The notes under the pieces are model-generated. The model searched no databases. It was not told the origin of the DNA and worked only from the letters and a program-made list of their open reading frames with translations. A program made the translations under genes and the position numbers. A DNA stretch of 64,000 nt from an uncultured Actinomycetota bacterium (GTDB lineage: Bacteria > Actinomycetota > Aquicultoria > CAYFWW01): the NCBI GenBank assembly GCA_964346985.1, contig CAYFWW010000005.1, positions 17,206-81,205 of the forward strand, given 5' to 3'. This document shows, piece by piece, positions 2,764 to 53,419 of the stretch (the stretch's first letter is position 1; every line of letters starts with the position of its first letter).

Positions 2764-3296
2764 TGCAAGAATACGTAAGACCTATAATTATCTTATTCTT
2801 GATATGCTTTATTGCGGCCGGCCTTTTAGCTTATACTTTTTCTTTTACCGATCCTATTATTAAGGAGAATCTGGAAAAAGCTAGAGATGAAGCTCTACAG
2901 CAGGTTAAACCTGATATTGAGAAATTTGAGAAGAAAAAGAAAGATGAATTTTCATATTATGTTGGCCAAAATATAGAAGGGGATACAGCTTACGCTTTGG
3001 AAGTAGAAACGAAAGGATATCAAGGACCGATAACTTTGATAATTGGTATGAACACCGATGGAAGCATATCAGGAGTAAAAATTCTTCAGCAGTCTGAAAC
3101 CCCGGGACTAGGAGCACATATTGCTGATGATTGGTTTCAGGATCAGTTCGCAGGTAAGAGTTATAAAGATGATTTTATGGTAAAGGGTGAATTAAAAGAC
3201 TTGGATGCTATAACCGGAGCAACAATATCCTCAGATTTAGTTGCTAGTTCGGTCAAGGATAATACTCGCAAGCTCTTTGAAAAGGTGGAAGAGTAA
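2763..3296 (+). CDS. rnfG: Rnf complex subunit G (FMN-binding, membrane-anchored); GTG start
   Basis: Single N-terminal TM helix. Contains the FMN-attachment region ...ITGATISS... characteristic of RnfG/NqrC. Confidence 0.85.
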   Translation: MQEYVRPIIILFLICFIAAGLLAYTFSFTDPIIKENLEKARDEALQQVKPDIEKFEKKKKDEFSYYVGQNIEGDTAYALEVETKGYQGPITLIIGMNTDGSISGVKILQQSETPGLGAHIADDWFQDQFAGKSYKDDFMVKGELKDLDAITGATISSDLVASSVKDNTRKLFEKVEE

Positions 3297-3297
3297 T

Positions 3298-3936
3298 ATG
3301 AGTGAATCAAAAAAATCTTTGAAGATGGATTATTGGTACGAATTTAAAAAAGGAATATTTAGTGAAAATCCAACTTTTAAGTTAGTTTTAGGGATGTGCC
3401 CGGTTTTAGCTGTAACAACTGCTGTTGTGAATGGAATAGGTATGGGTTTGGGTACAACTTTTGTACTGTTATGTTCAAATATAATAATTGCTTTATTAAG
3501 AAAATATATACCAGAAAAAGTTAGAATTCCTTGCTTTATAGTGGTCATTGCTACTTTTGTGACTATCACCGATTATGTTATGGCTGCTTTCTCACCAGAT
3601 GTACATAAAGCACTCGGTATATTTGTTCCTCTAATAGTTGTCAACTGCATTATTTTAGGAAGAGCCGAAGTTTTTGCCAGTAAAAATAGAGTATATCCGT
3701 CTATAATTGATGCTTTAGGTATGGGAATCGGATTTACTTTAAATCTATTATTAATAGGTTTTATCAGAGAATTGATTGGAAGTGGTGTCCTTGGTGATGG
3801 GACTGCCCTAAGAATTCAGATTTTTAATCCGGATTATTCAGCGGTTATGCTAATATTGCCACCCGGTGCTTTTATAACCATGGGGCTCTTGCTGGCACTC
3901 TTTAATTCACTAAGTAATCGCAAAAAAAGTGTCTAG
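3298..3936 (+). CDS. rnfE: Rnf complex subunit E
   Basis: The ATG at 3298 gives MSESKK...FKLVLGMCPVLAVTT..., an RnfE/NqrD-type membrane protein. The longer ORF from 3241 overlaps rnfG and is unlikely. Confidence 0.9.
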   Translation: MSESKKSLKMDYWYEFKKGIFSENPTFKLVLGMCPVLAVTTAVVNGIGMGLGTTFVLLCSNIIIALLRKYIPEKVRIPCFIVVIATFVTITDYVMAAFSPDVHKALGIFVPLIVVNCIILGRAEVFASKNRVYPSIIDALGMGIGFTLNLLLIGFIRELIGSGVLGDGTALRIQIFNPDYSAVMLILPPGAFITMGLLLALFNSLSNRKKSV

Positions 3937-40822: not shown

Positions 40823-42994
40823 ATGAAAGCAATTAATAAGATGATTAAAAATATAATTAAATATAATCCTGATGCTAATAAGGATAAAATCAAAGAAGCT
40901 TATTTTTTGGCAAAGAAATTACATTTAAACCAACAAAGAAAATCAGGAGAAGATTTTATTAATCATCCTCTTGAAGTGACCAGGATACTGGTCGATCTTG
41001 GAATGGATACAACCACAATAATTGCTGCTCTTTTACATGATGCAGTCGAGGATACAAATGTATCGCTTACTCAAATCAAGAGGCCTTTTAGTCAGGAAGT
41101 TGCAGATTTGATAGATGGTGTTACAAAGCTGGGTAAAATTGAATTTAAAACTGAAGAAGAACAACAAGCTGAGACATTAAGAAAGATGCTATTAGCAATG
41201 ACTAAAGATGTAAGAGTAATAATTATTAAATTAGCTGACAGAACACACAATATGAGAACTATAAATGCTTTGGAACCAGAAAAGAGAAAACAAAAAGCTC
41301 GAGAGACTCTGGATGTTTATGCTCCGTTAGCTCACCGCTTGGGGATTTACTCCATAAAATGGGAACTGGAGGATTTAAGTTTTGCTGTTCTTGAAAATAA
41401 AAAATATAACCAAATCATGAAGATGGTTGCTGAAAGTCGAAACGCCAGGGAAAAATATATTGAAAAGGTAAAAAAAGCTATTAGCAGCAGATTAAAGGAA
41501 GCAAATGTAAAATTTGAAATTTCGGGAAGGCCAAAACATTTTTACAGTATCTATCAAAAAATGGTTAAACGCGGCAAGGAGTTTAATGAAATCTATGATT
41601 TGATGGCTCTAAGGATTATTGTTGAAAATGTTAGGGATTGTTATGCTGCTCTTGGTATTATACATTCAATTTGGAAACCTATCCCAGGTCGATTTAAAGA
41701 CTATATTGCCATGCCTAAATTTAATCTTTATCAGTCGCTCCATACTACCGTCATCGGGCCAGAGGGAAAACCCTTGGAAATACAGATTAGGTCAACTTTG
41801 ATGCACCGCACGGCTGATTACGGAATTGCAGCTCACTGGCGTTATAAGGAAGGCGTAAAAAATGATATTGAATTTGAAGAAAGATTATCATGGTTGCGCC
41901 AGATGCTTGAATGGCAAAGTGATTTAAAAGATCCAAAAGAGTTTATGGAGGCTCTAAAAATTGACTTATTCGAAGACGAAGTTTTTGTTTTTTCTCCAAA
42001 AGGAGATGTCTATAGCTTGCCCAGTGGCTCAACACCCATTGACTTTGCCTATTCTATCCATACTGATGTAGGACATAGTTGTGTGGGAGCTAAAGTAAAT
42101 GGTCGAATAGTCCCTCTGGAATATGAACTAATAAATGGCGACCAGATTGAGATACTAACTTCGAAATCAAGTTCTGGCCCTAGCCGTGATTGGTTAAATA
42201 TTGTAAAGACGTCGAGGGCTAGAAATAAAATCAGGCAGTACTTTAGTAAAGAGCGAAGAGAAAGCTTGGAACAAGTAGGAAAAGATGAATTATATAAGAT
42301 AATGCGACGAAAAGGATTTATTCTGAAAGCCAGGTCTCAACAAAATGTTCTTAAAGAGATTGCTGCCGGGTTTAACTTTAATTCTGTCGATGATTTATAT
42401 TCTAGTATAGGGGCTGGCAAAACATCTCCGCAACAAGTTGCCACCAAATTGATCAATCTTATGACCCATCCTGATGAAAGAGAAATCGAAGAAGAAGATT
42501 ATGAAGAATATATAGCAAAACAAAAAGAAACTTCGACAACCGGCATTAAAGTAAAAGGTGTAGAAGATGTTTTAGTGAGGCTTGCCAGGTGCTGTAATCC
42601 AGTACCTGGAGATAAGATTGTCGGTTTTATTACTAGAGGTAGAGGTGTCTCTGTCCATAGAAATGAATGTACAAACATCGTAGGGTTAAAAGAAGAGAAA
42701 GACAGGTTTATTGAAGTATCATGGGATAAAAAAGTAGCTAAATCTTTTCCAGTTGAAATAAAAGTTGAATCAATTGACAGAAAAAAATTATTAAGAGATA
42801 TAAGTACAATTATCTCTGATGCCGGAGTTAATATTCTAAATGCCAGCGTAGTAACGAGCAAGGATAAAATTGCTATATTGAGATTTGTATTTGAAATAAG
42901 CGATATGGAACATCTTAAAAGCATATTGAATACAATTAACAATGTTGATACTGTTATTTCAACCTACCGAGTAATGCCCGGCCAAAGAAGTTAA
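40823..42994 (+). CDS. relA: Bifunctional (p)ppGpp synthetase/hydrolase Rel
   Basis: 723 aa. HD hydrolase (HDAVEDT), synthetase domain, TGS and ACT C-terminal domains. An extended -10 (TGcTATAAT) ends 6 nt before the ATG, so the mRNA may be leaderless or the start may be a downstream ATG. Confidence 0.95.
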   Translation: MKAINKMIKNIIKYNPDANKDKIKEAYFLAKKLHLNQQRKSGEDFINHPLEVTRILVDLGMDTTTIIAALLHDAVEDTNVSLTQIKRPFSQEVADLIDGVTKLGKIEFKTEEEQQAETLRKMLLAMTKDVRVIIIKLADRTHNMRTINALEPEKRKQKARETLDVYAPLAHRLGIYSIKWELEDLSFAVLENKKYNQIMKMVAESRNAREKYIEKVKKAISSRLKEANVKFEISGRPKHFYSIYQKMVKRGKEFNEIYDLMALRIIVENVRDCYAALGIIHSIWKPIPGRFKDYIAMPKFNLYQSLHTTVIGPEGKPLEIQIRSTLMHRTADYGIAAHWRYKEGVKNDIEFEERLSWLRQMLEWQSDLKDPKEFMEALKIDLFEDEVFVFSPKGDVYSLPSGSTPIDFAYSIHTDVGHSCVGAKVNGRIVPLEYELINGDQIEILTSKSSSGPSRDWLNIVKTSRARNKIRQYFSKERRESLEQVGKDELYKIMRRKGFILKARSQQNVLKEIAAGFNFNSVDDLYSSIGAGKTSPQQVATKLINLMTHPDEREIEEEDYEEYIAKQKETSTTGIKVKGVEDVLVRLARCCNPVPGDKIVGFITRGRGVSVHRNECTNIVGLKEEKDRFIEVSWDKKVAKSFPVEIKVESIDRKKLLRDISTIISDAGVNILNASVVTSKDKIAILRFVFEISDMEHLKSILNTINNVDTVISTYRVMPGQRS

Positions 42995-43003
42995 AGGAGA
43001 ATT

Positions 43004-43453
43004 GTGAGAGCTTTACTGCAAAAAGTAAGTTCAGCAAGTGTTGCTATCGAAAAACAATTGATTTCAAAAATAGGTCCGGGACTGCTAGTCTTTCTTGGAG
43101 CTGAAGAAGGGGACACTGAGGAAGATACTAATTATATTGCCAAAAAAATTAGCCAAATAAGAATTTTTCCCGACAAGCATGATAAATTAAATTTAGATAT
43201 TAGGGATGTTAAAGGTGAAATTTTACTTGTCAGCCAGTTTACATTAGTTGCGGATTGCAAAAAAGGTAATCGACCAAGTTTTAGCCAGGCGCTTTCTCCC
43301 GCAAAAGCAGAAATGTTTTATAATAATCTAGTTCAAAGACTAAAAAGCCTTAATCTAGATGTAAAGACAGGTAAGTTTAAAGCACAAATGAAAATTAAAC
43401 TGGTAAACGATGGACCGGTTACTATCTTTATTGATAGCAGAAAAAGACTCTAG
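43004..43453 (+). CDS. dtd: D-aminoacyl-tRNA deacylase; GTG start
   Basis: 149 aa, …GLLVFLG… and an SQFTL motif. AAAGGAGA ribosome-binding site. Confidence 0.9.
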   Translation: MRALLQKVSSASVAIEKQLISKIGPGLLVFLGAEEGDTEEDTNYIAKKISQIRIFPDKHDKLNLDIRDVKGEILLVSQFTLVADCKKGNRPSFSQALSPAKAEMFYNNLVQRLKSLNLDVKTGKFKAQMKIKLVNDGPVTIFIDSRKRL

Positions 43454-43455
43454 AC

Positions 43456-44088
43456 ATGATGAATATTAAAAAAATTATAGTCGGGCCACTAGGTACTAAT
43501 TGTTATATTATATACAGCGATAAAGAAAAAAAGGCCATAGTAATTGATCCTGGTGGAGATGCTAAAAGGATTATAAATACTTTAGACGAGCTTGATCTTG
43601 AAGTTGAGCACATTATTAATACGCATGGACATTTTGATCATGTTTCAGCCAACTTAGAGATGTATAGAAAAACGAAGAAAAAAATAATGATACATGAAAA
43701 AGATCATTCTTTAATCGATCATCCTCGGCTGGAGGCATTTTCAACAGATAGCAAAGATGGAAAATCGATCTATAAGTTTATCAAAGAGGGAGATGTCCTT
43801 GAAATTGATGGCCAACAAGTTAAAATCATAGAAACACCAGGACATTCACCTGGAAGTATAACCGTAGGTATAGAAAATGCCTTGTTTGTTGGAGATTTAT
43901 TATTCGAAGGTTCGGTTGGCAGGACAGATTTATATGGGGGTAACTTTGAACAGCTAAGGCAGTCATTAGCAAAATTAGTTCTTTATGATGAAGATACAAA
44001 TGTATATCCAGGCCATGGATCTAAGACAACTATAGGTAGGGAATTAATGCAAAATCCATATCTTCAAGAATTTGAAAGGAAAAAGTAA
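43456..44088 (+). CDS. MBL-fold metallo-hydrolase
   Basis: HGHFDH (HxHxDH) zinc motif and downstream His/Asp ligands. Confidence 0.8.
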   Translation: MMNIKKIIVGPLGTNCYIIYSDKEKKAIVIDPGGDAKRIINTLDELDLEVEHIINTHGHFDHVSANLEMYRKTKKKIMIHEKDHSLIDHPRLEAFSTDSKDGKSIYKFIKEGDVLEIDGQQVKIIETPGHSPGSITVGIENALFVGDLLFEGSVGRTDLYGGNFEQLRQSLAKLVLYDEDTNVYPGHGSKTTIGRELMQNPYLQEFERKK

Positions 44089-44090
44089 CT

Positions 44091-45371
44091 GTGGAGATAA
44101 AAGCACCTCGGGGAACTTCTGACGTCTTACCTGAAAAGGCGGCAATCTGGGATTATCTAGAATCAAAAGTAGTAGACATATTTACAAATTTTGGTTATAA
44201 AAAAATAATACTCCCAGTTTTTGAGCATACTGAGATTTTTCAACGCGGTATTGGCCAATCAACCGATATTGTCCAAAAAGAAATGTATACTTTTGAGGAC
44301 AAGGGAGGGAGGAGCTTAACTCTGCGTCCTGAAGGAACAGCCTCGGTGGTCAGGTCTTTTATCGAAAACAAAATGTGGAATAATCCACTCCCGGTCAAGC
44401 TGTATTATATTGGGCCAATGTTTCGCTATGAACGCCCTCAGTCTGGAAGATACCGGGAATTCTGGCAAATGGGGGCGGAAGCCTTGGGTTCCGACGACCC
44501 ATTTCTAGATGTAGAAATGATAATTCTTTTGATGGATTACTTTCGTTCATTAAAACTGAATAAATTAGAATTAAAAATAAATTCTATGGGTTGTTCTAAA
44601 TGTCAACCCGCATATACTGGAGATTTAAAGAAATTTATTGAACCTAATCTTGAAAAGATATGTAAACAATGTCAAAAAAGATATGAAAAAAATCCTTTAA
44701 GGATATTTGATTGTAAGAATAAAGAATGCCAAAAGATATACGGCGATGCTCCAAAATTAACGGATTATCTATGCCAAGAATGCAAAATGCATTTTGACCA
44801 GGTTAAAGATGCTTTAACTGAAAATAATGAAGATTTTGAGGTCGATAAATCTCTGGTAAGGGGCTTTGATTATTACACAAAAACAACATTTGAGATTTGC
44901 TCGCCGGTATTAGGTGCTCAGAATGCAATTGGAGGCGGGGGGAGATATGATGGACTAATAGAATCTTATGGTGGTCCGCCTAATCCAGGGATTGGTTTTG
45001 CTTTGGGAATTGAAAGAATGATATTGGCTATGCAAGCAGAAGAAAGAATGCCAGGCCCGAAAAGAATAAATGATGTATTCGTTGTTTCAGTGGATAAAGA
45101 TAGCAAACCAGAGGTTTTTAAATTATTAATGGAGTTAAGACGTTCTGGTATTTCGGCTGAGATGGATTTTGCCGAAAGAAGCTTGCGCAGCCAGATGAAA
45201 CAAGCAGATAAGAAAAAAGCTGAATATGCATTAATTCTTGGGCCTGATGAAATTAAATCAGGAGTTTGCACAATAAAGGATTTGATTAATGGTACTCAGG
45301 AAAATATTAAAAGAAATAAAGTTTTGGAATATCTATTAAAGAAAAAGAGAGTTAATGAAAGAAAGAATTAA
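44091..45371 (+). CDS. hisS: Histidine--tRNA ligase; GTG start
   Basis: Class II aaRS motifs and a HisS-typical N-terminus (…PRGTSDVLPE…). 426 aa. Confidence 0.95.
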   Translation: MEIKAPRGTSDVLPEKAAIWDYLESKVVDIFTNFGYKKIILPVFEHTEIFQRGIGQSTDIVQKEMYTFEDKGGRSLTLRPEGTASVVRSFIENKMWNNPLPVKLYYIGPMFRYERPQSGRYREFWQMGAEALGSDDPFLDVEMIILLMDYFRSLKLNKLELKINSMGCSKCQPAYTGDLKKFIEPNLEKICKQCQKRYEKNPLRIFDCKNKECQKIYGDAPKLTDYLCQECKMHFDQVKDALTENNEDFEVDKSLVRGFDYYTKTTFEICSPVLGAQNAIGGGGRYDGLIESYGGPPNPGIGFALGIERMILAMQAEERMPGPKRINDVFVVSVDKDSKPEVFKLLMELRRSGISAEMDFAERSLRSQMKQADKKKAEYALILGPDEIKSGVCTIKDLINGTQENIKRNKVLEYLLKKKRVNERKN

Positions 45372-47133
45372 AAATTCACAAAAGACTCATTATTGCAAAC
45401 AATTGAACAGGGATAATATTGACGAGGAAGTTATTTTAGCCGGATGGGTAAATAAGCGTAGAGATCATGGAGGATTGATCTTTGTTGACTTAAGAGATAG
45501 GTCTGGTTTAGTTCAGTTAGTGATAAGCCCGGATGAAAATCCGGAAGCATTTAAGGTTGCCGAAAAAGTTAGAAATGAATTTGTGCTTAAAGTACAGGGA
45601 AAAGTAAGGCACAGACCAAAAGGAACAGTAAACCCCGATTTAGAAACCGGCGAGATTGAAGTTTTTATTGAAAAACTGGAAATTCTTAATTCTTCGCTTA
45701 CTCCTCCGTTCGAGATTGAAGACGAAGTTTCGGTTGATGAAAAAATCCGTTTGAAATATCGTTATCTTGATCTGAGAAGGCCGGTTATGGCCGAATCGAT
45801 TATGTTTAGACATCAGGTAACTGGAAAAGTTAGGCAGTTTTTAGATAGAAATGATTTTATCGAAGTAGAAACACCGATATTAACTAAGAGTACACCTGAA
45901 GGTGCTAGAGATTATCTGGTTCCTTCAAGGATAAGCCAAGGCCATTTTTATGCGTTACCCCAGTCTCCGCAACTTTTCAAGCAGCTTTTGATGATAGCTG
46001 GGTTGGAGCGTTATTACCAAATTGCAAGATGCTTTAGGGACGAAGACTTGAGGGCCGACAGGCAACCGGAGCATACCCAGGTGGATATAGAAATGTCATT
46101 TATCGAGTGCGATGACTTATTAGCATTAGTCGAAGAAATGATTAAAGATATTTTTTCTTTAATAAAGGTTGAAATAGACTTACCTTTTCCAAGATTAACA
46201 TACGATCAAGCTATGTTAAATTATGGATCTGATAAGCCAGATTTGAGATATGAATTAGAAATTAATGATGTCACAGATATTTTTGACAAGACTGCTTTTA
46301 AAGTTTTTTCAGGTGTCATTGAGAAAGATGGCGTTATCAGGGCACTTGTGGTTCCGGGAGGTATATCTTTTACCAGAAAAAAGTTAGATGAATTGATCGA
46401 AACTTCGAAGGAATTTGGAGCAGGCGGTTTAGTCTGGCTTCAGCTAAAAAACCAACAAGATATTAAATCACCAGTAGCAAAATATTTATCTGAACAAGAA
46501 GTTAGGCAGTTAATAGAACAAACAAAGGCAAATTCCGGAGACCTGATTTTAATAGTTGCTGACCAAGAAAGAATTGCGGCTGAGGCATTAGGTGGATTAA
46601 GATCAAATTTAGCAGGTGATTTGAAATTAATAAAAGAAGATTCTTTTAACATGAGTTGGATATTAGATTTTCCACTTTTTGAATATGACACTGAAGAAAA
46701 AAGATATAAATCAAATCATCACCCTTTTACCAGGCCAACTGAAGATACCTTAGCTTTTCTGGAAAAAGACCCGCTTAAAGTAAAAGCCTATGCTTATGAT
46801 TTGATATTAAACGGAGTTGAAATTGGTGGAGGAAGTTTGCGTATTCACAATCAAGATCTCCAAAGAAAGATATTTAAAATTCTAGGCATTGAAGCCAAGG
46901 AAGCTGAATCCAAGTTTGGTTTTTTATTGGAAGCGTTGAAATATGGTGCACCACCTCACGGGGGGATAGCTTTTGGTCTTGATAGAATGATAATGGTTAT
47001 GACCAGAAAAAAATCAATTCGGGATGTTATTGCTTTCCCGAAAACACAAGCTGCAGCTTGTTTATTAACAAAAGCACCAAACTTAGTTAAGCCCGAGCAA
47101 CTTAAAGAGTTGCATTTGCGATTAAGAAAGTAA
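45355..47133 (+). CDS. aspS: Aspartate--tRNA ligase
   Basis: 592 aa. OB-fold anticodon-binding N-terminus, class II motifs (QLFKQLLM, GGGSLRIH). Confidence 0.95.
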   Translation: MKERIKNSQKTHYCKQLNRDNIDEEVILAGWVNKRRDHGGLIFVDLRDRSGLVQLVISPDENPEAFKVAEKVRNEFVLKVQGKVRHRPKGTVNPDLETGEIEVFIEKLEILNSSLTPPFEIEDEVSVDEKIRLKYRYLDLRRPVMAESIMFRHQVTGKVRQFLDRNDFIEVETPILTKSTPEGARDYLVPSRISQGHFYALPQSPQLFKQLLMIAGLERYYQIARCFRDEDLRADRQPEHTQVDIEMSFIECDDLLALVEEMIKDIFSLIKVEIDLPFPRLTYDQAMLNYGSDKPDLRYELEINDVTDIFDKTAFKVFSGVIEKDGVIRALVVPGGISFTRKKLDELIETSKEFGAGGLVWLQLKNQQDIKSPVAKYLSEQEVRQLIEQTKANSGDLILIVADQERIAAEALGGLRSNLAGDLKLIKEDSFNMSWILDFPLFEYDTEEKRYKSNHHPFTRPTEDTLAFLEKDPLKVKAYAYDLILNGVEIGGGSLRIHNQDLQRKIFKILGIEAKEAESKFGFLLEALKYGAPPHGGIAFGLDRMIMVMTRKKSIRDVIAFPKTQAAACLLTKAPNLVKPEQLKELHLRLRK

Positions 47134-47134
47134 A

Positions 47135-47163
47135 TTGAATGGCTTTTTCTTGTGTGCTACAAT
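47135..47163 (+). promoter_or_regulatory. Sigma-A-type promoter TTGAAT-17-(TG)cTACAAT for the downstream structured RNA
   Basis: TTGAAT at 47135-47140, a 17-nt spacer, an extended TG, then TACAAT at 47158-47163. The predicted start of transcription (~47170) coincides with the 5' end of the RNA's closing stem. Confidence 0.45.
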
Positions 47164-47169
47164 CAAAAA

Positions 47170-47347
47170 AAAGCTCTGCCTTGTACGTGAGCATTTGTGA
47201 TTGTGTGAGCCAACACATTCACAAAGGGAACTTAGCTCTATTAGCAGCTTGGATGCCAGATAATGGAACCAAAAAGTTAGTAGGAAAGTACCCACCTGAA
47301 CAAACAGGGTTCAACAATGTGATATGTCCACGGCAAGGCGGGGCTTG
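47170..47347 (+). ncRNA. ssrS: Candidate 6S RNA (SsrS/BsrA-like), about 180 nt
   Basis: 12-bp terminal stem: 47172-47183 AGCTCTGCCTTG pairs with 47334-47345 CAAGGCGGGGCT (two G-U pairs). Further interrupted helices lie inward. Own promoter. Position directly downstream of aspS matches B. subtilis 6S-1 (bsrA, aspS-yrvM intergenic region). The overlapping 69-codon ORF is Cys-rich and has no ribosome-binding site. Confidence 0.45.
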
Positions 47348-47366
47348 ACTCTGAAAGGAGATAAAC

Positions 47367-47909
47367 TTGCCAGCTAGAAGATATACATTCTTTTTATTAC
47401 TGCTTTTAATTTCAGCAATTATTATTTCAGGATGCGGAGGCGGTGGAGGTCAGCCAGCAAGTGATCAAAACACATCAAATACTGCCCAGCCTGATCAAAC
47501 CGGTGGAGACCAGCCACCAGTGCCTACAACAACAACATCAGCACAGGATAAAATCCCACGCGACTTTAAATTAAGCGATGAAATGCCGGATTTTATTAAG
47601 AAAGCAGTTTCAGAAAAGAGACCCTTTGTTATTGTCTTTTTTCTCAAGGGTGATTACACATGGAATGAAGCAAAACCTGAGATTGATAATGTTAAAGAAA
47701 CTTATAAACAGATAAGCTTCTTTTATATTGATATTGATTCAACAAAAAAAGATCCAAAAAAATCTAAACTTGCTAAAGAACTGGAAGTAAACTATCTACC
47801 AGAAATATTTCTCATAAACCAGGAAAGTAAGATTGTATATCAACATAGCGGTTATATAGATCGCGATACTTTTAAGAATGAGATTCATCAGAAGCTTTCT
47901 TTAAAGTAA
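47367..47909 (+). CDS. Lipoprotein with a thioredoxin-like fold lacking the CxxC motif; TTG start
   Basis: Signal peptide plus lipobox (IISGC). Gly/Pro/Thr-rich linker. C-terminal region with thioredoxin-like topology (…FVIVFF…YLPEIFLINQ…) but no catalytic cysteines. AAAGGAG ribosome-binding site. Confidence 0.5.
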   Translation: MPARRYTFFLLLLLISAIIISGCGGGGGQPASDQNTSNTAQPDQTGGDQPPVPTTTTSAQDKIPRDFKLSDEMPDFIKKAVSEKRPFVIVFFLKGDYTWNEAKPEIDNVKETYKQISFFYIDIDSTKKDPKKSKLAKELEVNYLPEIFLINQESKIVYQHSGYIDRDTFKNEIHQKLSLK

Positions 47910-47937
47910 TAATTGAAAATAAGTGTCAGTCGTAATA

Positions 47938-49290
47938 ATGGATTTATTTGATCAGCAGATTAATGAATATCTCGAAAAAAATGCACCTTTAGCCTACAGG
48001 CTTCGGCCAAAAAAAATTGAGGACTTTATTGGCCAAAATGAAATTATTGGCCCGGGTAGAATTTTAAGAAGAGCAATTGAGCAAGACCTGATTCAATCTG
48101 CAATTTTTTGGGGTCCTCCAGGGAGTGGTAAGACAACTTTAGCAGAAATAATTGCTAATATAACAAAAAAACATTTTGTAAAACTTAGCGCAGTAAGTTC
48201 GGATGTTGCTGAAGTCAGAAGAGTTATTTCAGGGGCAAAAGATAGAAACATTATTGATAACCTGGGAACAGTTGTCTTTATTGATGAAATACATCGTTTT
48301 AATAAAAACCAGCAAGATGCTTTACTCCCCGCAGTTGAAGAAGGATTAATAACTTTAATAGGGGCAACTACTGAAAATCCTTTCTTTGAGGTTAATGCGC
48401 CACTTTTATCCCGTTCAAGAATATTTCAGTTTAAACCACTCAACAAAGAAGAAATTAATCAAATCTACACAAGAGCACTTACGGATAAAGAAAAAGGATT
48501 AAAAAAGTACAATTTAAAGATTGAAAAAAAAGCTAAAGAGCATCTTTTAAATTCAGCTAATGGGGATGCCAGGTTATTATTGAATGCTCTGGAATTCTTG
48601 GCAATTGCTGTAGAAGAAGGTAAAAATAAAGAGCGAAATGTTTCTATTGATGAGGCTGAAGAAGCTGTTCAAAAAAGATATGTTGCTTATGATAAAAGAG
48701 GAGACGATCATTATGATACTATCTCAGCTTTTATTAAGAGCATTAGAGGCTCAGATCCAGATGCAGCAGTTTTTTGGTTAAGTAAAATGCTTTATGCAGG
48801 TGAAGATCCAAAGATTATTGCCCGACGATTAATTATTTCTGCATCTGAAGATATAGGACTTGCTGATTCCAATGCACTGAATATTGCTGTTTCTGCAGCT
48901 CAAGCTGTTGATTTTGTAGGCTTGCCGGAAGCCAGAATAAATTTGGCCCAGGCAACAATATATCTTGCATTAGCTCCAAAAAGTAATTCATCATATCTGG
49001 CAATAAAAAAAGCTTTTGATGATGTTGAGAAAAAACATGCTATTGAGGTTCCGGATAGATTAAAAGACAGCAGTTATAAGGGTGCAAAATTTATTGGCCA
49101 TGGTCAAGGTTATCTTTATCCTCATGACTATGAAAATCATTACATTGATCAAGAATACCTGCCTTCAAACTTAAAGGATGCTCGCTATTACCAACCAACA
49201 GCAGAGGGTGAAGAGAAAATAAAAGTCAGCCAGTGGTTAAAAAGAAAAAATGTAGAAAATAAGAATCAAAGGTCCGAGAAGAAAGGCTAG
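47938..49290 (+). CDS. rarA: Replication-associated recombination protein A (AAA+ ATPase RarA/MgsA)
   Basis: Walker A GPPGSGKTT, Walker B VVFIDEIHRF, and a MgsA-type C-terminal domain. An in-frame GTG at 47923 is the alternative start. Confidence 0.9.
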   Translation: MDLFDQQINEYLEKNAPLAYRLRPKKIEDFIGQNEIIGPGRILRRAIEQDLIQSAIFWGPPGSGKTTLAEIIANITKKHFVKLSAVSSDVAEVRRVISGAKDRNIIDNLGTVVFIDEIHRFNKNQQDALLPAVEEGLITLIGATTENPFFEVNAPLLSRSRIFQFKPLNKEEINQIYTRALTDKEKGLKKYNLKIEKKAKEHLLNSANGDARLLLNALEFLAIAVEEGKNKERNVSIDEAEEAVQKRYVAYDKRGDDHYDTISAFIKSIRGSDPDAAVFWLSKMLYAGEDPKIIARRLIISASEDIGLADSNALNIAVSAAQAVDFVGLPEARINLAQATIYLALAPKSNSSYLAIKKAFDDVEKKHAIEVPDRLKDSSYKGAKFIGHGQGYLYPHDYENHYIDQEYLPSNLKDARYYQPTAEGEEKIKVSQWLKRKNVENKNQRSEKKG

Positions 49291-49293
49291 GTT

Positions 49294-49650
49294 TTGTCTC
49301 CGTTAGCAACAAATACTTTTATTGCTATTTTTATTATGCTTGGGATTTTTGCTATTGCTGCTCTTATTTATCTGATAATAACAATGAGAAATATAAACAG
49401 ATTTGTAATTTTTATGGAAAAAGAAGCAACTCCTGTATTATCAAGGCTGCAAAAAACTTTAGAAAAATTAGGAGACGAACTTGATAAAACTGTTGATATA
49501 ATAAATGATGTTCATAAAGTGAGTGAGAGAGTTAATTTAACTATTCAACTGGTGCAGGAAATAGTTACCTCTCCATTCGTTAAACTGGCCGGCTTATCTG
49601 CTGGAGCGAAAAAGATTATACAATCCTTACGTCAAAAGGAAAATGAATAG
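49294..49650 (+). CDS. DUF948 domain-containing membrane-anchored protein; TTG start
   Basis: 118 aa. N-terminal TM helix followed by a helical region with …LSRLQKTLEKLGDELDKTVDIINDV…, the DUF948 pattern. Confidence 0.55.
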   Translation: MSPLATNTFIAIFIMLGIFAIAALIYLIITMRNINRFVIFMEKEATPVLSRLQKTLEKLGDELDKTVDIINDVHKVSERVNLTIQLVQEIVTSPFVKLAGLSAGAKKIIQSLRQKENE

Positions 49651-49686
49651 CAGTAAATCAAAAAAACAAATTTTTAAGGAGGTTTA

Positions 49687-50805
49687 ATGGCAACAACAAA
49701 AAAACCCTCAAGTAAAAATTTTGATAATATTCTTATCTGGCAAAGAAGAATTTGGTTTCTGGTTGGCACCTTAATCCTGATTATCGTTTTATTTTATCTT
49801 TTGAATTTCTTAAAACCTGTAATCACACCTTTTGTCTATGCATTGGCCATAGTCTATATTCTTAAACCGATTGTTGATTTTTTTCAAGATAAAGGAATTC
49901 CTCGGATATTTGCTGTCATTTTAGCCTATTTATTATTCATTTTTATTGTTTCTCTATTCTTAATCTATATTATTCCGATAATTATTGATCAATTTCGAGG
50001 TTTGATTTCATCAATTCCAACTTATATTGAACTAATTGAAAAAAAGGCTCTACTTTATTTAAAAGAAATTGGTAAGATGCATTTACCCTTTGACCTAAAG
50101 AAATTACTAGCGGATTTATTGGATAGGTTAAAAGAGCCCGGGCTAGCTTTTTTTGGACGTATACCCGGATATACAGCTAATGTTGTATCTAGCTTTTTTA
50201 ATATTGTAATCGCTCCGATTTTAGCTTTTTATATATTGAAGGATTATGAACAAATTAGGTTGAATATCCGTAATTTAATACCCATGCGTTACCGAGAAGA
50301 AGTAACTACTGGTATTACCAAGATTGATGAGGTTATTTCAAATTACTTAAAAGGCCAGATTTTTGTTGCCTTAATAGTCGGTTTTCTTATGACTATTGGA
50401 CTTTATATACTGGGAATCGATTATGCATTGATAATAGGAATGATTGGCGGTATTGCTAATATTGTTCCTTATTTAGGCCCTATAATAGGGGCAATACCAG
50501 CTATAATAATCGCCTTTTTTGAGAAGCCTATTTTAGCTTTATGGGTAATAATAGTAATGATAATTATTCAACAAGTTGACAGTTTTCTTATTTCACCTAA
50601 TATTATGAAAAAGCAAATGGACTTACACCCGGCTTTAATAGTCTTCGCTCTTATGGTAGGCGGAATAATTTGGGGAATTCTCGGAATGCTCCTAGCTATT
50701 CCAATAACGGCAGCCGGAAAAGCTGTTATGATGTACTACATAGAAAAATCTCCTTATTATCAGGAGGATAATATAAAAGATGAAACACCAGGAGATAAGA
50801 GATAA
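49687..50805 (+). CDS. AI-2E family transporter (UPF0118)
   Basis: 372 aa, eight TM helices, AI-2E-type topology. GGAGG ribosome-binding site. Confidence 0.8.
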   Translation: MATTKKPSSKNFDNILIWQRRIWFLVGTLILIIVLFYLLNFLKPVITPFVYALAIVYILKPIVDFFQDKGIPRIFAVILAYLLFIFIVSLFLIYIIPIIIDQFRGLISSIPTYIELIEKKALLYLKEIGKMHLPFDLKKLLADLLDRLKEPGLAFFGRIPGYTANVVSSFFNIVIAPILAFYILKDYEQIRLNIRNLIPMRYREEVTTGITKIDEVISNYLKGQIFVALIVGFLMTIGLYILGIDYALIIGMIGGIANIVPYLGPIIGAIPAIIIAFFEKPILALWVIIVMIIIQQVDSFLISPNIMKKQMDLHPALIVFALMVGGIIWGILGMLLAIPITAAGKAVMMYYIEKSPYYQEDNIKDETPGDKR

Positions 50806-53419
50806 TTTTTTATCATTTTTTAAAAAAAGAGATCATACTATAGTAAAAAGTTCTTCTTTGATACCCAATGATCCAACAATGCTCCTGACAGGTGCGGGCA
50901 TGGTTCAGTTTAAACCGATTTTTTTGGGTAACCAAAAAGCTGATTATAATAGAGCTGCTTCTGCTCAAAAATGTGTTAGGACTACTGACATTGATAACGT
51001 TGGTAAAACCGCTAGGCATCTAACTTTTTTTGAAATGCTTGGTAATTTTTCATTTGGGGATTATTTTAAAGAAAAAGCTATTCCTTGGTGCTGGGAATTG
51101 CTTGTGGATGAATATAAACTTGATCCAGAAAAACTTTGGATAACTATTTATAATGATGACGATGAAGCTGCTGAAATATGGCAGAATGAAGCTGGAATTT
51201 CCTCAAATAAGATAGTCCGCCTTGGTGAAGATGATAATTTTTGGGCAGCCGGACCAACCGGTCCTTGCGGGCCTTGCTCAGAAATAATTTTTGACTTTGG
51301 GAAAGAGCGGGCGTGCAGTTCAAATTGTAGTGTTGGTTGTGATTGTGATCGATTTTTAGAAGTCTGGAATTTAGTATTTATGCAGTACGACCGGGACGAA
51401 AACGGTAAATTAAATCCATTGCCGAAAAAAGGAATAGATACCGGAATGGGATTAGAAAGGCTTGCTTCGCTTCTCCAGAATTCAAACACAAATTTTGAGA
51501 CAGATATTATATGGCCTTTAATAGAAAATTTGGTTGAATTATCTGGCCAAGAGTATGAAAAAGAGGATAAATATAAAACCTCAATGAGGATAATTGCTGA
51601 TCATTCTAGAGCTATAACGTTTTTAATTGGAGACGGAGTTATTCCCACAAACGATGGCAGAGGGTATATTTTAAGGAGGCTTCTCAGGAGAACAATTAGA
51701 CACGGAAAGATTATAGGAGTTGATAAGCCTTTTCTTAAAACTATGGTTGAAACTGTGATGGAATCAATGGGTTCTGTCTATCCTGAAATAATTGAGAATA
51801 AAGATTTTATTCTTAAGATAGTACAGAGCGAAGAAGAGCGCTTTAATCAAACATTACGCCAGGGCTTAAGGTTAATAGAAAAAAATATATCTGAATTAGC
51901 TAAAGAAAATAAGAAAGAATTATCTGGTGAAACGGCATTTAAACTGTATGATACTTATGGTTTTCCACTAGAACTTACTGAAGAGATAGCTTCTGAAAGT
52001 GGACTAAAAATTAAAAAAGAAGAATATGAGAAATTGATGGAAAAGCAGAGAAAAACAGGTAGATCGGCCTGGCAAGAATCAGGCTGGGAAGTTAAAGAGA
52101 AACTATACTCAGATTTAGCGAAAAAACTACCCAAGTCTGAGTTTAGTGGTTATGAAGAAGAAGAGACGCAAACAAAAATTTATGCGATTATCAAAAATGG
52201 AAAGCTATGTGATCAACTTAAGAAAAATGATGAGGGTGAAATCGTTTTAGAAAAAACTCCTTTTTATGCAGAAAAAGGAGGTCAAATTGCTGATAAAGGA
52301 TTAATTAAGACCGAGTCTGGGGAATTCGAGGTTTTAGATACTCAAGAGCAAATAGAGGGATTGATCCTACATATGGGTAGAGTAACCAAAGGCAGTATTG
52401 AAAAAACAAATTCTGCTAAAGCCATAATTGAAATTAGACGCAGGCAATTAATTGCCAGAAATCATACGGCAACACATTTATTGCATTGGGCATTGAGATT
52501 AGTTCTTGGTTCTCATGTAAAGCAAGCTGGTTCTTTTGTCGGGCACGATCATCTGCGTTTTGACTTTTCACATTTTCAAGCTATGAATGATGATGAGATA
52601 AAAAAAGTCGAAAATCTTGTTAACCAGAAGATTATTGAAAACCACCCAGTGAGATGTTTTATTACTACTCAAGACTATGCACGTGATATAGGAGCAATTG
52701 CCCTGTTTGGCGAGAAGTATGATGAATATGTCAGAGTTGTTGAATCTGGAAATTTTCATAAGGAGTTATGTGGCGGAACTCACGTTGTTTCAACAGGGGT
52801 TATAGGATTATTTAAAATTTCCTCTGAAACTTCTATTGGGTCTAACTTAAGAAGAATTGAAGCGGTCACATCTCGAAAAGCCATTGAAATTATAAACGAT
52901 AAAGAAAATATAATTAAGAAAATTGAATCTAGACTTGAAACCAATCTAGAACAAATTCCTGAAAAAATTGATTCTTTAGTGGATGAATTAAAAGATACAA
53001 AACAAAAGATTAGTAAAATGCAATCAAAGCAGATAAAGGATGATTTAAGTAAATTATTGAAAGATATTGTGGAAATAAACGGTTACAAGGTTGTGGTGGC
53101 CAAAATAGATGCTTCGGATATGGAAGAATTAAGGTATTATACTGATTTAATCAGAGATGAAACTAAAAGCTGCGTGGTTTTACTTGGCTCGATTACCAAT
53201 GGTAAAGTTCTACTAATTGCTGCAGCAACAAAGGATATAGCCGGTAAAGGCTTCAGCTCTAAAGAATTGATACAAAATGTTGCCCCGCTTGTCGGCGGTG
53301 GAGGCGGAGGCAAGAATGACCTTGCTCAAGCTGGTGGACGAAAAATTGAGAAAATAGATGAAGCTCTTTCGAAAGGGAAAGAATATATTATTGAATTTTT
53401 TACCGGTGATGATAATTGA
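50780..53419 (+). CDS. alaS: Alanine--tRNA ligase
   Basis: 879 aa. MKHQEIRDNFLSFFKKRDH… N-terminus, editing-domain HxxxH/CxxxH zinc motifs, and a C-terminal DHHA1 (GGGGG) region. Confidence 0.95.
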   Translation: MKHQEIRDNFLSFFKKRDHTIVKSSSLIPNDPTMLLTGAGMVQFKPIFLGNQKADYNRAASAQKCVRTTDIDNVGKTARHLTFFEMLGNFSFGDYFKEKAIPWCWELLVDEYKLDPEKLWITIYNDDDEAAEIWQNEAGISSNKIVRLGEDDNFWAAGPTGPCGPCSEIIFDFGKERACSSNCSVGCDCDRFLEVWNLVFMQYDRDENGKLNPLPKKGIDTGMGLERLASLLQNSNTNFETDIIWPLIENLVELSGQEYEKEDKYKTSMRIIADHSRAITFLIGDGVIPTNDGRGYILRRLLRRTIRHGKIIGVDKPFLKTMVETVMESMGSVYPEIIENKDFILKIVQSEEERFNQTLRQGLRLIEKNISELAKENKKELSGETAFKLYDTYGFPLELTEEIASESGLKIKKEEYEKLMEKQRKTGRSAWQESGWEVKEKLYSDLAKKLPKSEFSGYEEEETQTKIYAIIKNGKLCDQLKKNDEGEIVLEKTPFYAEKGGQIADKGLIKTESGEFEVLDTQEQIEGLILHMGRVTKGSIEKTNSAKAIIEIRRRQLIARNHTATHLLHWALRLVLGSHVKQAGSFVGHDHLRFDFSHFQAMNDDEIKKVENLVNQKIIENHPVRCFITTQDYARDIGAIALFGEKYDEYVRVVESGNFHKELCGGTHVVSTGVIGLFKISSETSIGSNLRRIEAVTSRKAIEIINDKENIIKKIESRLETNLEQIPEKIDSLVDELKDTKQKISKMQSKQIKDDLSKLLKDIVEINGYKVVVAKIDASDMEELRYYTDLIRDETKSCVVLLGSITNGKVLLIAAATKDIAGKGFSSKELIQNVAPLVGGGGGGKNDLAQAGGRKIEKIDEALSKGKEYIIEFFTGDDN

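Follow-up and report, generated by a model that had tools for sequence, protein, structure and literature searches.

The aspS gene, which encodes aspartyl-tRNA synthetase, occupies positions 45355-47133 on the + strand of the 64-kb stretch of DNA analysed here (the window) and was recognized from the ORF list and from its Pfam tRNA-synt_2, GAD, and OB-fold domains. It ends at 47133 and the next ORF, which has a TTG start, begins at 47367, giving the 233-bp spacer that the first-pass annotation had described. That ORF (47367-47909, +) is a thioredoxin-like lipoprotein gene, as indicated by a Pfam Thioredoxin_2 match and by a lipobox, IISGC, in its translation. It is followed by rarA/mgsA (47923-49290, +; Pfam MgsA_C, AAA_assoc_2, and AAA), which encodes an AAA+ ATPase and is conserved as a neighbor of 6S in Firmicutes-type genomes. 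The order in the window is hisS-aspS-6S-lipoprotein-rarA. In a wider view, positions 40823-53419 hold relA/spoT, (dtd), an MBL-fold hydrolase, hisS, aspS, 6S, the lipoprotein gene, rarA, DUF948, an AI-2E transporter, and alaS, a gene order that is that of a Firmicutes-like housekeeping block.

6S RNA is a small RNA of about 180-200 nt whose structure resembles an open promoter and which restrains the main RNA polymerase. Its transcript is usually abundant and stable and builds up towards stationary phase. The whole 64-kb window was scanned against 4227 Rfam families, at gathering thresholds and then at E≤1, and at both levels the sole match is RF00013 (6S/SsrS). This match covers 47170-47348 on the + strand with 98.6 bits (gathering score 46.4, E-value 1.4e-18) and is full length and untruncated, spanning model positions 1-187 of 187. 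No second 6S copy was detected in the window at E≤1. The first-pass annotation had proposed a candidate 6S RNA of about 180 nt downstream of aspS and had suggested a covariance-model search with RF00013 as a check. The full-length match, 179 nt long and far above the gathering score, bears the proposal out. On the evidence of the Rfam match, the fold z-score, and covariation across 9 sequences, 47170-47348 (+) is almost certainly a canonical 6S RNA gene (ssrS/bsrA-type, 179 nt), corresponding in both position and structure to Bacillus subtilis 6S-1 (bsrA).

The aspS stop codon is 36 nt from the 6S RNA, and a promoter-like site lies between them. A -35 hexamer, TTGAAT (47135-47140, +), begins 2 nt past the stop codon, and an extended -10 element, TGcTACAAT (47155-47163, +; hexamer TACAAT at 47158-47163), was found by the same consensus scan. 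The two hexamers are separated by 17 nt, with TGc directly preceding TACAAT. This is the only sigma-70-like site across 46600-48100; shuffled versions of that region carry a mean of 4.0 such sites, and the lone promoter match is not significant. The -10 hexamer ends 6 nt ahead of the first RF00013 model position (47170), which is also the predicted transcription start, and this local anatomy suggests that the primary transcript starts at about 47170.

Promoter-like sites recur at the corresponding place in relatives. L020 has TTGACA-17-TAAAAT, L021 has TTGATA-17-TGcTAATAT, and L026 has TTCACA-17-TGcTATATT, and in these three loci the 6S match begins 8-12 nt past the end of the -10 hexamer. L022 carries TGcTATATT and L027 TGcTAGTAT at the equivalent place. 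L021, L022, L026, and L027 share an extended -10 motif, TGcTAnnAT, located 6-12 nt ahead of the 5' end of 6S. It is this recurrence, rather than the lone match in the window, that supports a dedicated extended -10 promoter. The TTGAAT-17-TGcTACAAT promoter named in the first-pass annotation is present, at 47135-47163, with equivalents in relatives, and the start of transcription that had been placed at the 5' end of the RNA (about 47170) coincides with the first position matched by Rfam.

The RNA has the parts expected of a 6S RNA. A terminal helix can be read directly from the sequence, in which 47172-47183 (AGCTCTGCCTTG) pairs with 47334-47345 (CAAGGCGGGGCT) over 12 bp with two G-U pairs, just as the first-pass annotation had it. 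This helix is contained in a longer closing stem (5' strand 47171-47194, 3' strand 47324-47346, +) present in the minimum-free-energy fold, where it has 22 pairs, and in the comparative consensus. Consensus helices 2 and 3 correspond to helix P2, the 'downstream duplex', which the Rfam alignment places at 47201-47211 (UUGU-G-UGAGCC) paired with 47308-47317 (GGUUCAACAA). The central bubble is roughly 14 x 14 nt. Its 5' strand (47212-47225, +; AACACAUUCACAAA) is unpaired in the Rfam consensus, the comparative consensus adds no more than a weak helix of 2 pairs, and its 3' strand (47294-47307, +; ACCUGAACAAACAG) is defined by the Rfam alignment. Beyond the bubble an irregular apical, or upstream, stem-loop extends from GGG (47226-47228) to CCC (47291-47293) and comprises consensus helices 5-8 (47226-47293, +). 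A small hairpin is predicted within the 3' bubble strand, CCUG (47295-47298) with CAGG (47305-47308); it is predicted in 7 of the 9 homologues, in which the stem sequences differ. The + strand folds with a minimum free energy of -72.3 kcal/mol (z = -6.44), a stability reached by none of 200 shuffled sequences, whereas the fold of the - strand is weaker (z = -2.93).

Nine distinct 6S sequences, the window and 8 relatives whose RNAs are 56-64% identical to that of the window, were aligned with MAFFT. RNAalifold recovers 53 pairs in 8 helices from this alignment. The first-pass annotation had recommended looking for compensatory changes downstream of aspS in related genomes; the relatives keep the structure, with compensatory changes in 25 of the 53 pairs. 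In an independent count, standard pairs occupy 91.1% of cells across the 53 pairs and nine sequences. When the 3' partners are shuffled, 80.5 +/- 1.1% of cells are paired and none of 500 shuffles reaches the observed value; when the partners are slid by 1-3 columns, 39-46% are paired. The covariation score is 0.434, compared with 0.228 for the shuffled and 0.07-0.12 for the slid controls. Consensus helix 1, the closing stem, has 21 pairs, 8 of them with compensatory changes, and 89.8% of its cells are paired. In the apical stem (consensus helices 5-8) the figure is 91-98%, with compensatory changes in 13 of 23 pairs. The sequences flanking the bubble, CCAACAC and ACCCACCUG, are almost invariant in the alignment. 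In nine lineages, then, compensatory changes have maintained a long closing stem, P2, the central bubble, and the apical stem.

The rod with a central bubble put forward in the first-pass annotation can be seen in both the Rfam alignment and the comparative consensus, but the fold predicted from this one sequence has no open bubble. Instead, that fold forms an 11-bp hairpin at 47195-47224 (nt 26-37 with nt 44-55) that masks the 5' bubble strand together with the predicted start of the product RNA. Replacing the hairpin by P2, as in the canonical fold, lowers the stability by 4-5 kcal/mol, and the predicted ensemble of this RNA gives P2 a probability of about 0.001. The hairpin was considered as a conserved structure and rejected, with 41.8% of cells paired, equal to the controls. 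It may have arisen as an artefact of the prediction or be a peculiarity of this sequence, and as such would not count against membership in the 6S family.

Loci of relatives were reached via AspS, using species-representative genomes and assemblies that encode the best protein matches. In 8 divergent relatives Rfam places 6S directly downstream of aspS and on the same strand, with scores of 83-111 bits. Lucifera butyrica scores 111.3 bits, a Halanaerobiaceae MAG 102.6, and a Bacillota MAG 101.7; at the closer loci L020, L021, L022, L026, and L027 the 6S that follows aspS scores 83.3-89.8 bits. The common neighborhood is relA-dtd-MBL hydrolase-hisS-aspS-[6S]-rarA-mnmA. The lipoprotein gene between 6S and rarA is found in the window organism only, and rarA comes next in L001, L021, L022, L026, and L027. 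L012 has a T-box leader before aspS; none was detected upstream of hisS-aspS in the window by Rfam at E≤1.

L024 and L025 gave no 6S match with Rfam even at E≤1; the L024 contig ends 124 nt after aspS. L025 (Logan SRR16352836; AspS 60% identical) has a gap of about 300 nt after aspS, at 3124-3429, without an Rfam match, and the gap is followed by the gene for a 1210-aa S8 peptidase, not by rarA. The L025 gap could reflect loss of 6S, its relocation, or strong divergence.

Contigs L018, L019, and L023 belong to the same organism and are identical across 47135-47366. A scan of metagenome DNA found that organism only (L018 and L019; 99.5-99.9% identical) and so added no covariation. A scan of genome contigs by shared 8-mers found relatives of no more than 57% identity, with 6S after aspS in 3 of 17; the others are Proteobacteria, Planctomycetota, and similar groups in which 6S is located elsewhere. 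The AspS homology search covered 5.8 billion protein clusters. The window AspS is 99% identical to P0001, from contig L023 of the same organism, and the best of the 8000 scored relatives is otherwise 62% identical; an exact-sequence look-up of the window AspS gave no match. Since AspS has no relative above 62% identity outside its own organism, the lineage appears to be sparsely sampled; it may be either deep Actinomycetota-like or Bacillota-like. Among the named AspS relatives, Actinomycetota-labelled MAGs come first, Ca. Oleimmundimicrobium (class Ca. Aquicultoria) being one of them, and Firmicutes come next.

A location downstream of aspS and close to rarA characterizes the 6S-1 subtype, and this is where the window RNA lies, as do the 6S RNAs of the 8 relatives. 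According to a 2002 study cited in PMC10578484, bsrA sits in the aspS-yrvM region of B. subtilis. The first-pass annotation was correct in giving bsrA the same position downstream of aspS. The presence of rarA next to 6S has been described across Firmicutes (PMC8414754).

At the 3' end, the 6S RNA is followed after 7 nt by the ribosome-binding site of the lipoprotein gene, AAAGGAG (47355-47361), and after 19 nt by the start of that gene. A scan of the gap between 6S and the lipoprotein gene found neither a terminator nor a second promoter-like site, and no convincing + strand terminator was found across the genes that follow 6S in the window. Because a terminator is missing and the lipoprotein gene is only 19 nt downstream, 6S is probably co-transcribed with the lipoprotein and rarA genes, with its 3' end generated by nuclease processing. 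Co-transcription with a downstream gene is known for 6S in Escherichia coli, in ssrS-ygfA (PMC2848244). The arrangement after 6S varies among the relatives. Intrinsic terminators follow 6S in L001, L003, and L027, and L006 has a long inverted repeat with a T-run. L021 resembles the window, as rarA begins 24 nt after its 6S match. In L020 the gene after 6S is on the opposite strand.

Several other readings of the locus were weighed. An ORF of 69 codons (47139-47348, +; ORF list) overlaps the whole RNA and could be taken as the gene for a 69-aa peptide containing Cys. It is uninterrupted across the entire element, starts with ATG, and encodes 4 Cys, yet it has neither a Shine-Dalgarno sequence nor a match to a Pfam family. 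None of the 8 relatives has a + strand ORF spanning the whole 6S, all 8 pairwise alignments of the window with the relatives contain frame-breaking indels (not multiples of three), and the substitutions keep base pairs, not codons. On the identical contig L023 the gene caller left the gap between aspS and the lipoprotein gene empty. The ORF is judged spurious, and there is virtually no chance that it is a protein-coding gene; the first-pass annotation had likewise held that the stretch is better explained as non-coding. It is also very unlikely that the element is a structured, cis-regulatory 5' leader of a lipoprotein-rarA operon instead of a free-standing, trans-acting RNA. The missing terminator, the ribosome-binding site 7 nt downstream, the lack of another promoter-like site ahead of the lipoprotein gene, and the position of rarA in L021 would all suit a leader, but the Rfam 6S match is full length, and co-transcription of E. 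coli ssrS with ygfA does not make 6S a leader there (PMC2848244). Moreover, the intrinsic terminators after the homologous RNA in L001, L003, and L027 and the opposite-strand gene in L020 indicate that the element is conserved independently of the genes downstream.

Two further readings accept the RNA as 6S and differ in how it is made or how it behaves. No + strand terminator was found between aspS and 6S in a terminator scan of 46600-47366, and read-through from aspS into 6S is therefore possible. The RNA could then lack an effective promoter of its own and be cut from hisS-aspS read-through transcripts as a product of their 3' UTR, with the promoter-like site incidental. The short distance from the aspS stop codon, the number of promoter-like matches (1, when 4.0 are expected by chance in 1.5 kb), and the known nuclease maturation of 6S RNAs (PMC10578484) speak for such an origin. 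Against it, the -10 element has an extended TG and stops 6 nt short of the first model position, and promoter-like sites or TGcTAnnAT occur 6-12 nt upstream in L020, L021, L022, L026, and L027 in spite of diverged flanks. We consider this origin unlikely while allowing it some weight. There is a slim chance that 6S is the first cistron of a terminator-less 6S-lipoprotein-rarA transcript and that the 47195-47224 hairpin is a lineage-specific conformer in which the RNA occludes itself, concealing both the bubble and the start of the product RNA. If that were true, polymerase capture would be governed by a structural switch or by temperature, and not by abundance alone. The reading as a canonical 6S RNA gene is the one followed below.

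Binding of RNA polymerase and synthesis of a product RNA would be expected here by homology, from membership in the 6S family. The folded RNA would mimic an open promoter and occupy the active site of the sigma-A/sigma-70 RNA polymerase holoenzyme, and when nutrients are scarce the housekeeping holoenzyme would be held back in the 6S-bound form. As NTP levels rise, the polymerase would copy the 5' bubble strand from C47214 into a short, G-initiated product RNA, which would unzip P2, refold the 6S RNA, and free the polymerase. The start of the product RNA was placed by homology, through alignment to the B. subtilis 6S-1 template. C47214 (RNA nt 45) is the predicted template start, and the predicted product RNA is 5'-GUUGGCUCACACAAUC (beginning 5'-GUUGGCUCA..., 5'-GUUGGCUC). 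The template motif of the window, GAGCCAAC followed by ACAUUC (also given as UGAGCCAAC followed by ACAUUC), aligns with GACCGAAC of B. subtilis, which is copied there into the product RNA 5'-GUUCGGUCAAAACUA (PMC12005410). At the sequence level, 9 of 9 sequences have C as the homologous template nucleotide. In B. subtilis the product RNA of 6S-1 starts with GTP and that of 6S-2 with ATP, and GTP initiation makes 6S-1, not 6S-2, an efficient template (PMC3753640). When the rearrangement caused by the product RNA was modeled with 14 template nt blocked, the nine sequences did not agree on a 'bubble collapse helix'.

The closest resemblance among known systems is to B. subtilis 6S-1. Both RNAs lie directly after aspS with rarA nearby, and in its consensus structure the window RNA shares the rod shape of 6S-1, made up of a closing stem, P2, a central bubble, and an apical stem. 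RNAs of the B. subtilis 6S-1 type are described as having a small hairpin in the 3' bubble strand when free (PMC8876501), and one is predicted here; the product RNA is G-initiated in both, 5'-GUUCGGUCA... in B. subtilis and, by prediction, 5'-GUUGGCUCA... in the window. The window RNA is shorter, 179 nt versus about 190-197 nt. B. subtilis 6S-1 is made as a 208-nt precursor (PMC10578484), whereas little or no 5' leader is expected in the window, given that just 6 nt separate the -10 element from the mature 5' end. The rarA gene of B. subtilis is monocistronic and runs in the opposite direction (PMC8414754), while in the window a same-strand lipoprotein gene follows 19 nt downstream without a terminator. 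A further difference is the non-conserved 5' hairpin that competes with P2 in the predicted fold of the window RNA. B. subtilis 6S-2 (bsrB) belongs to the same Rfam family and has the same overall fold, but it is ATP-initiated and lies at another locus (PMC3753640); the window RNA has the template C and the 6S-1 locus.

E. coli 6S (ssrS) shares the Rfam family and the architecture, and the same mechanism, an open-promoter mimic released by product-RNA synthesis, is expected. Probable co-transcription with a downstream protein gene and a 3' end made by processing are likewise features in common with ssrS-ygfA (PMC2848244). The synteny differs, with ygfA in E. coli and aspS/rarA in the window. 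The E. coli product RNA starts at U44 with ATP, in contrast to the G initiation predicted here, and an extended 9-bp 3'-bubble hairpin forms in E. coli only after product-RNA synthesis (PMC8876501), whereas a short hairpin is predicted in the free window RNA. Ms1 RNA of Actinobacteria was compared as well, since Actinomycetota-labelled MAGs are the closest named relatives by AspS. It too is a structured RNA that binds RNA polymerase, with a length of about 200-300 nt. It binds the core enzyme, not the holoenzyme, and constitutes a separate family (PMC9130861). Identity with Ms1 was rejected, as 6S is the only Rfam family that matches the window at E≤1.

The feature is an ordinary 6S RNA gene, one that would be called by any annotation pipeline using Rfam; its position after aspS is already known, having been described in 2002, and the locus leaves the current understanding of 6S RNA unchallenged. 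For annotation purposes, the 233-bp spacer can be labelled ssrS (6S RNA, 6S-1 type) and the 69-codon ORF removed. The hisS-aspS-6S-rarA order, first described in B. subtilis, reaches into a poorly sampled lineage, whose nearest AspS relatives share only about 60% identity with it. 6S is described as widespread in bacteria except Actinobacteria, which have Ms1 instead (PMC9130861). Canonical Rfam 6S RNAs of 83-84 bits are present at the Firmicutes-type aspS-rarA position in L022 (4339-4520) and L026 (4307-4488), whose hosts are Actinomycetota-labelled MAGs (Ca. Oleimmundimicrobium, class Ca. Aquicultoria, and an unclassified MAG).
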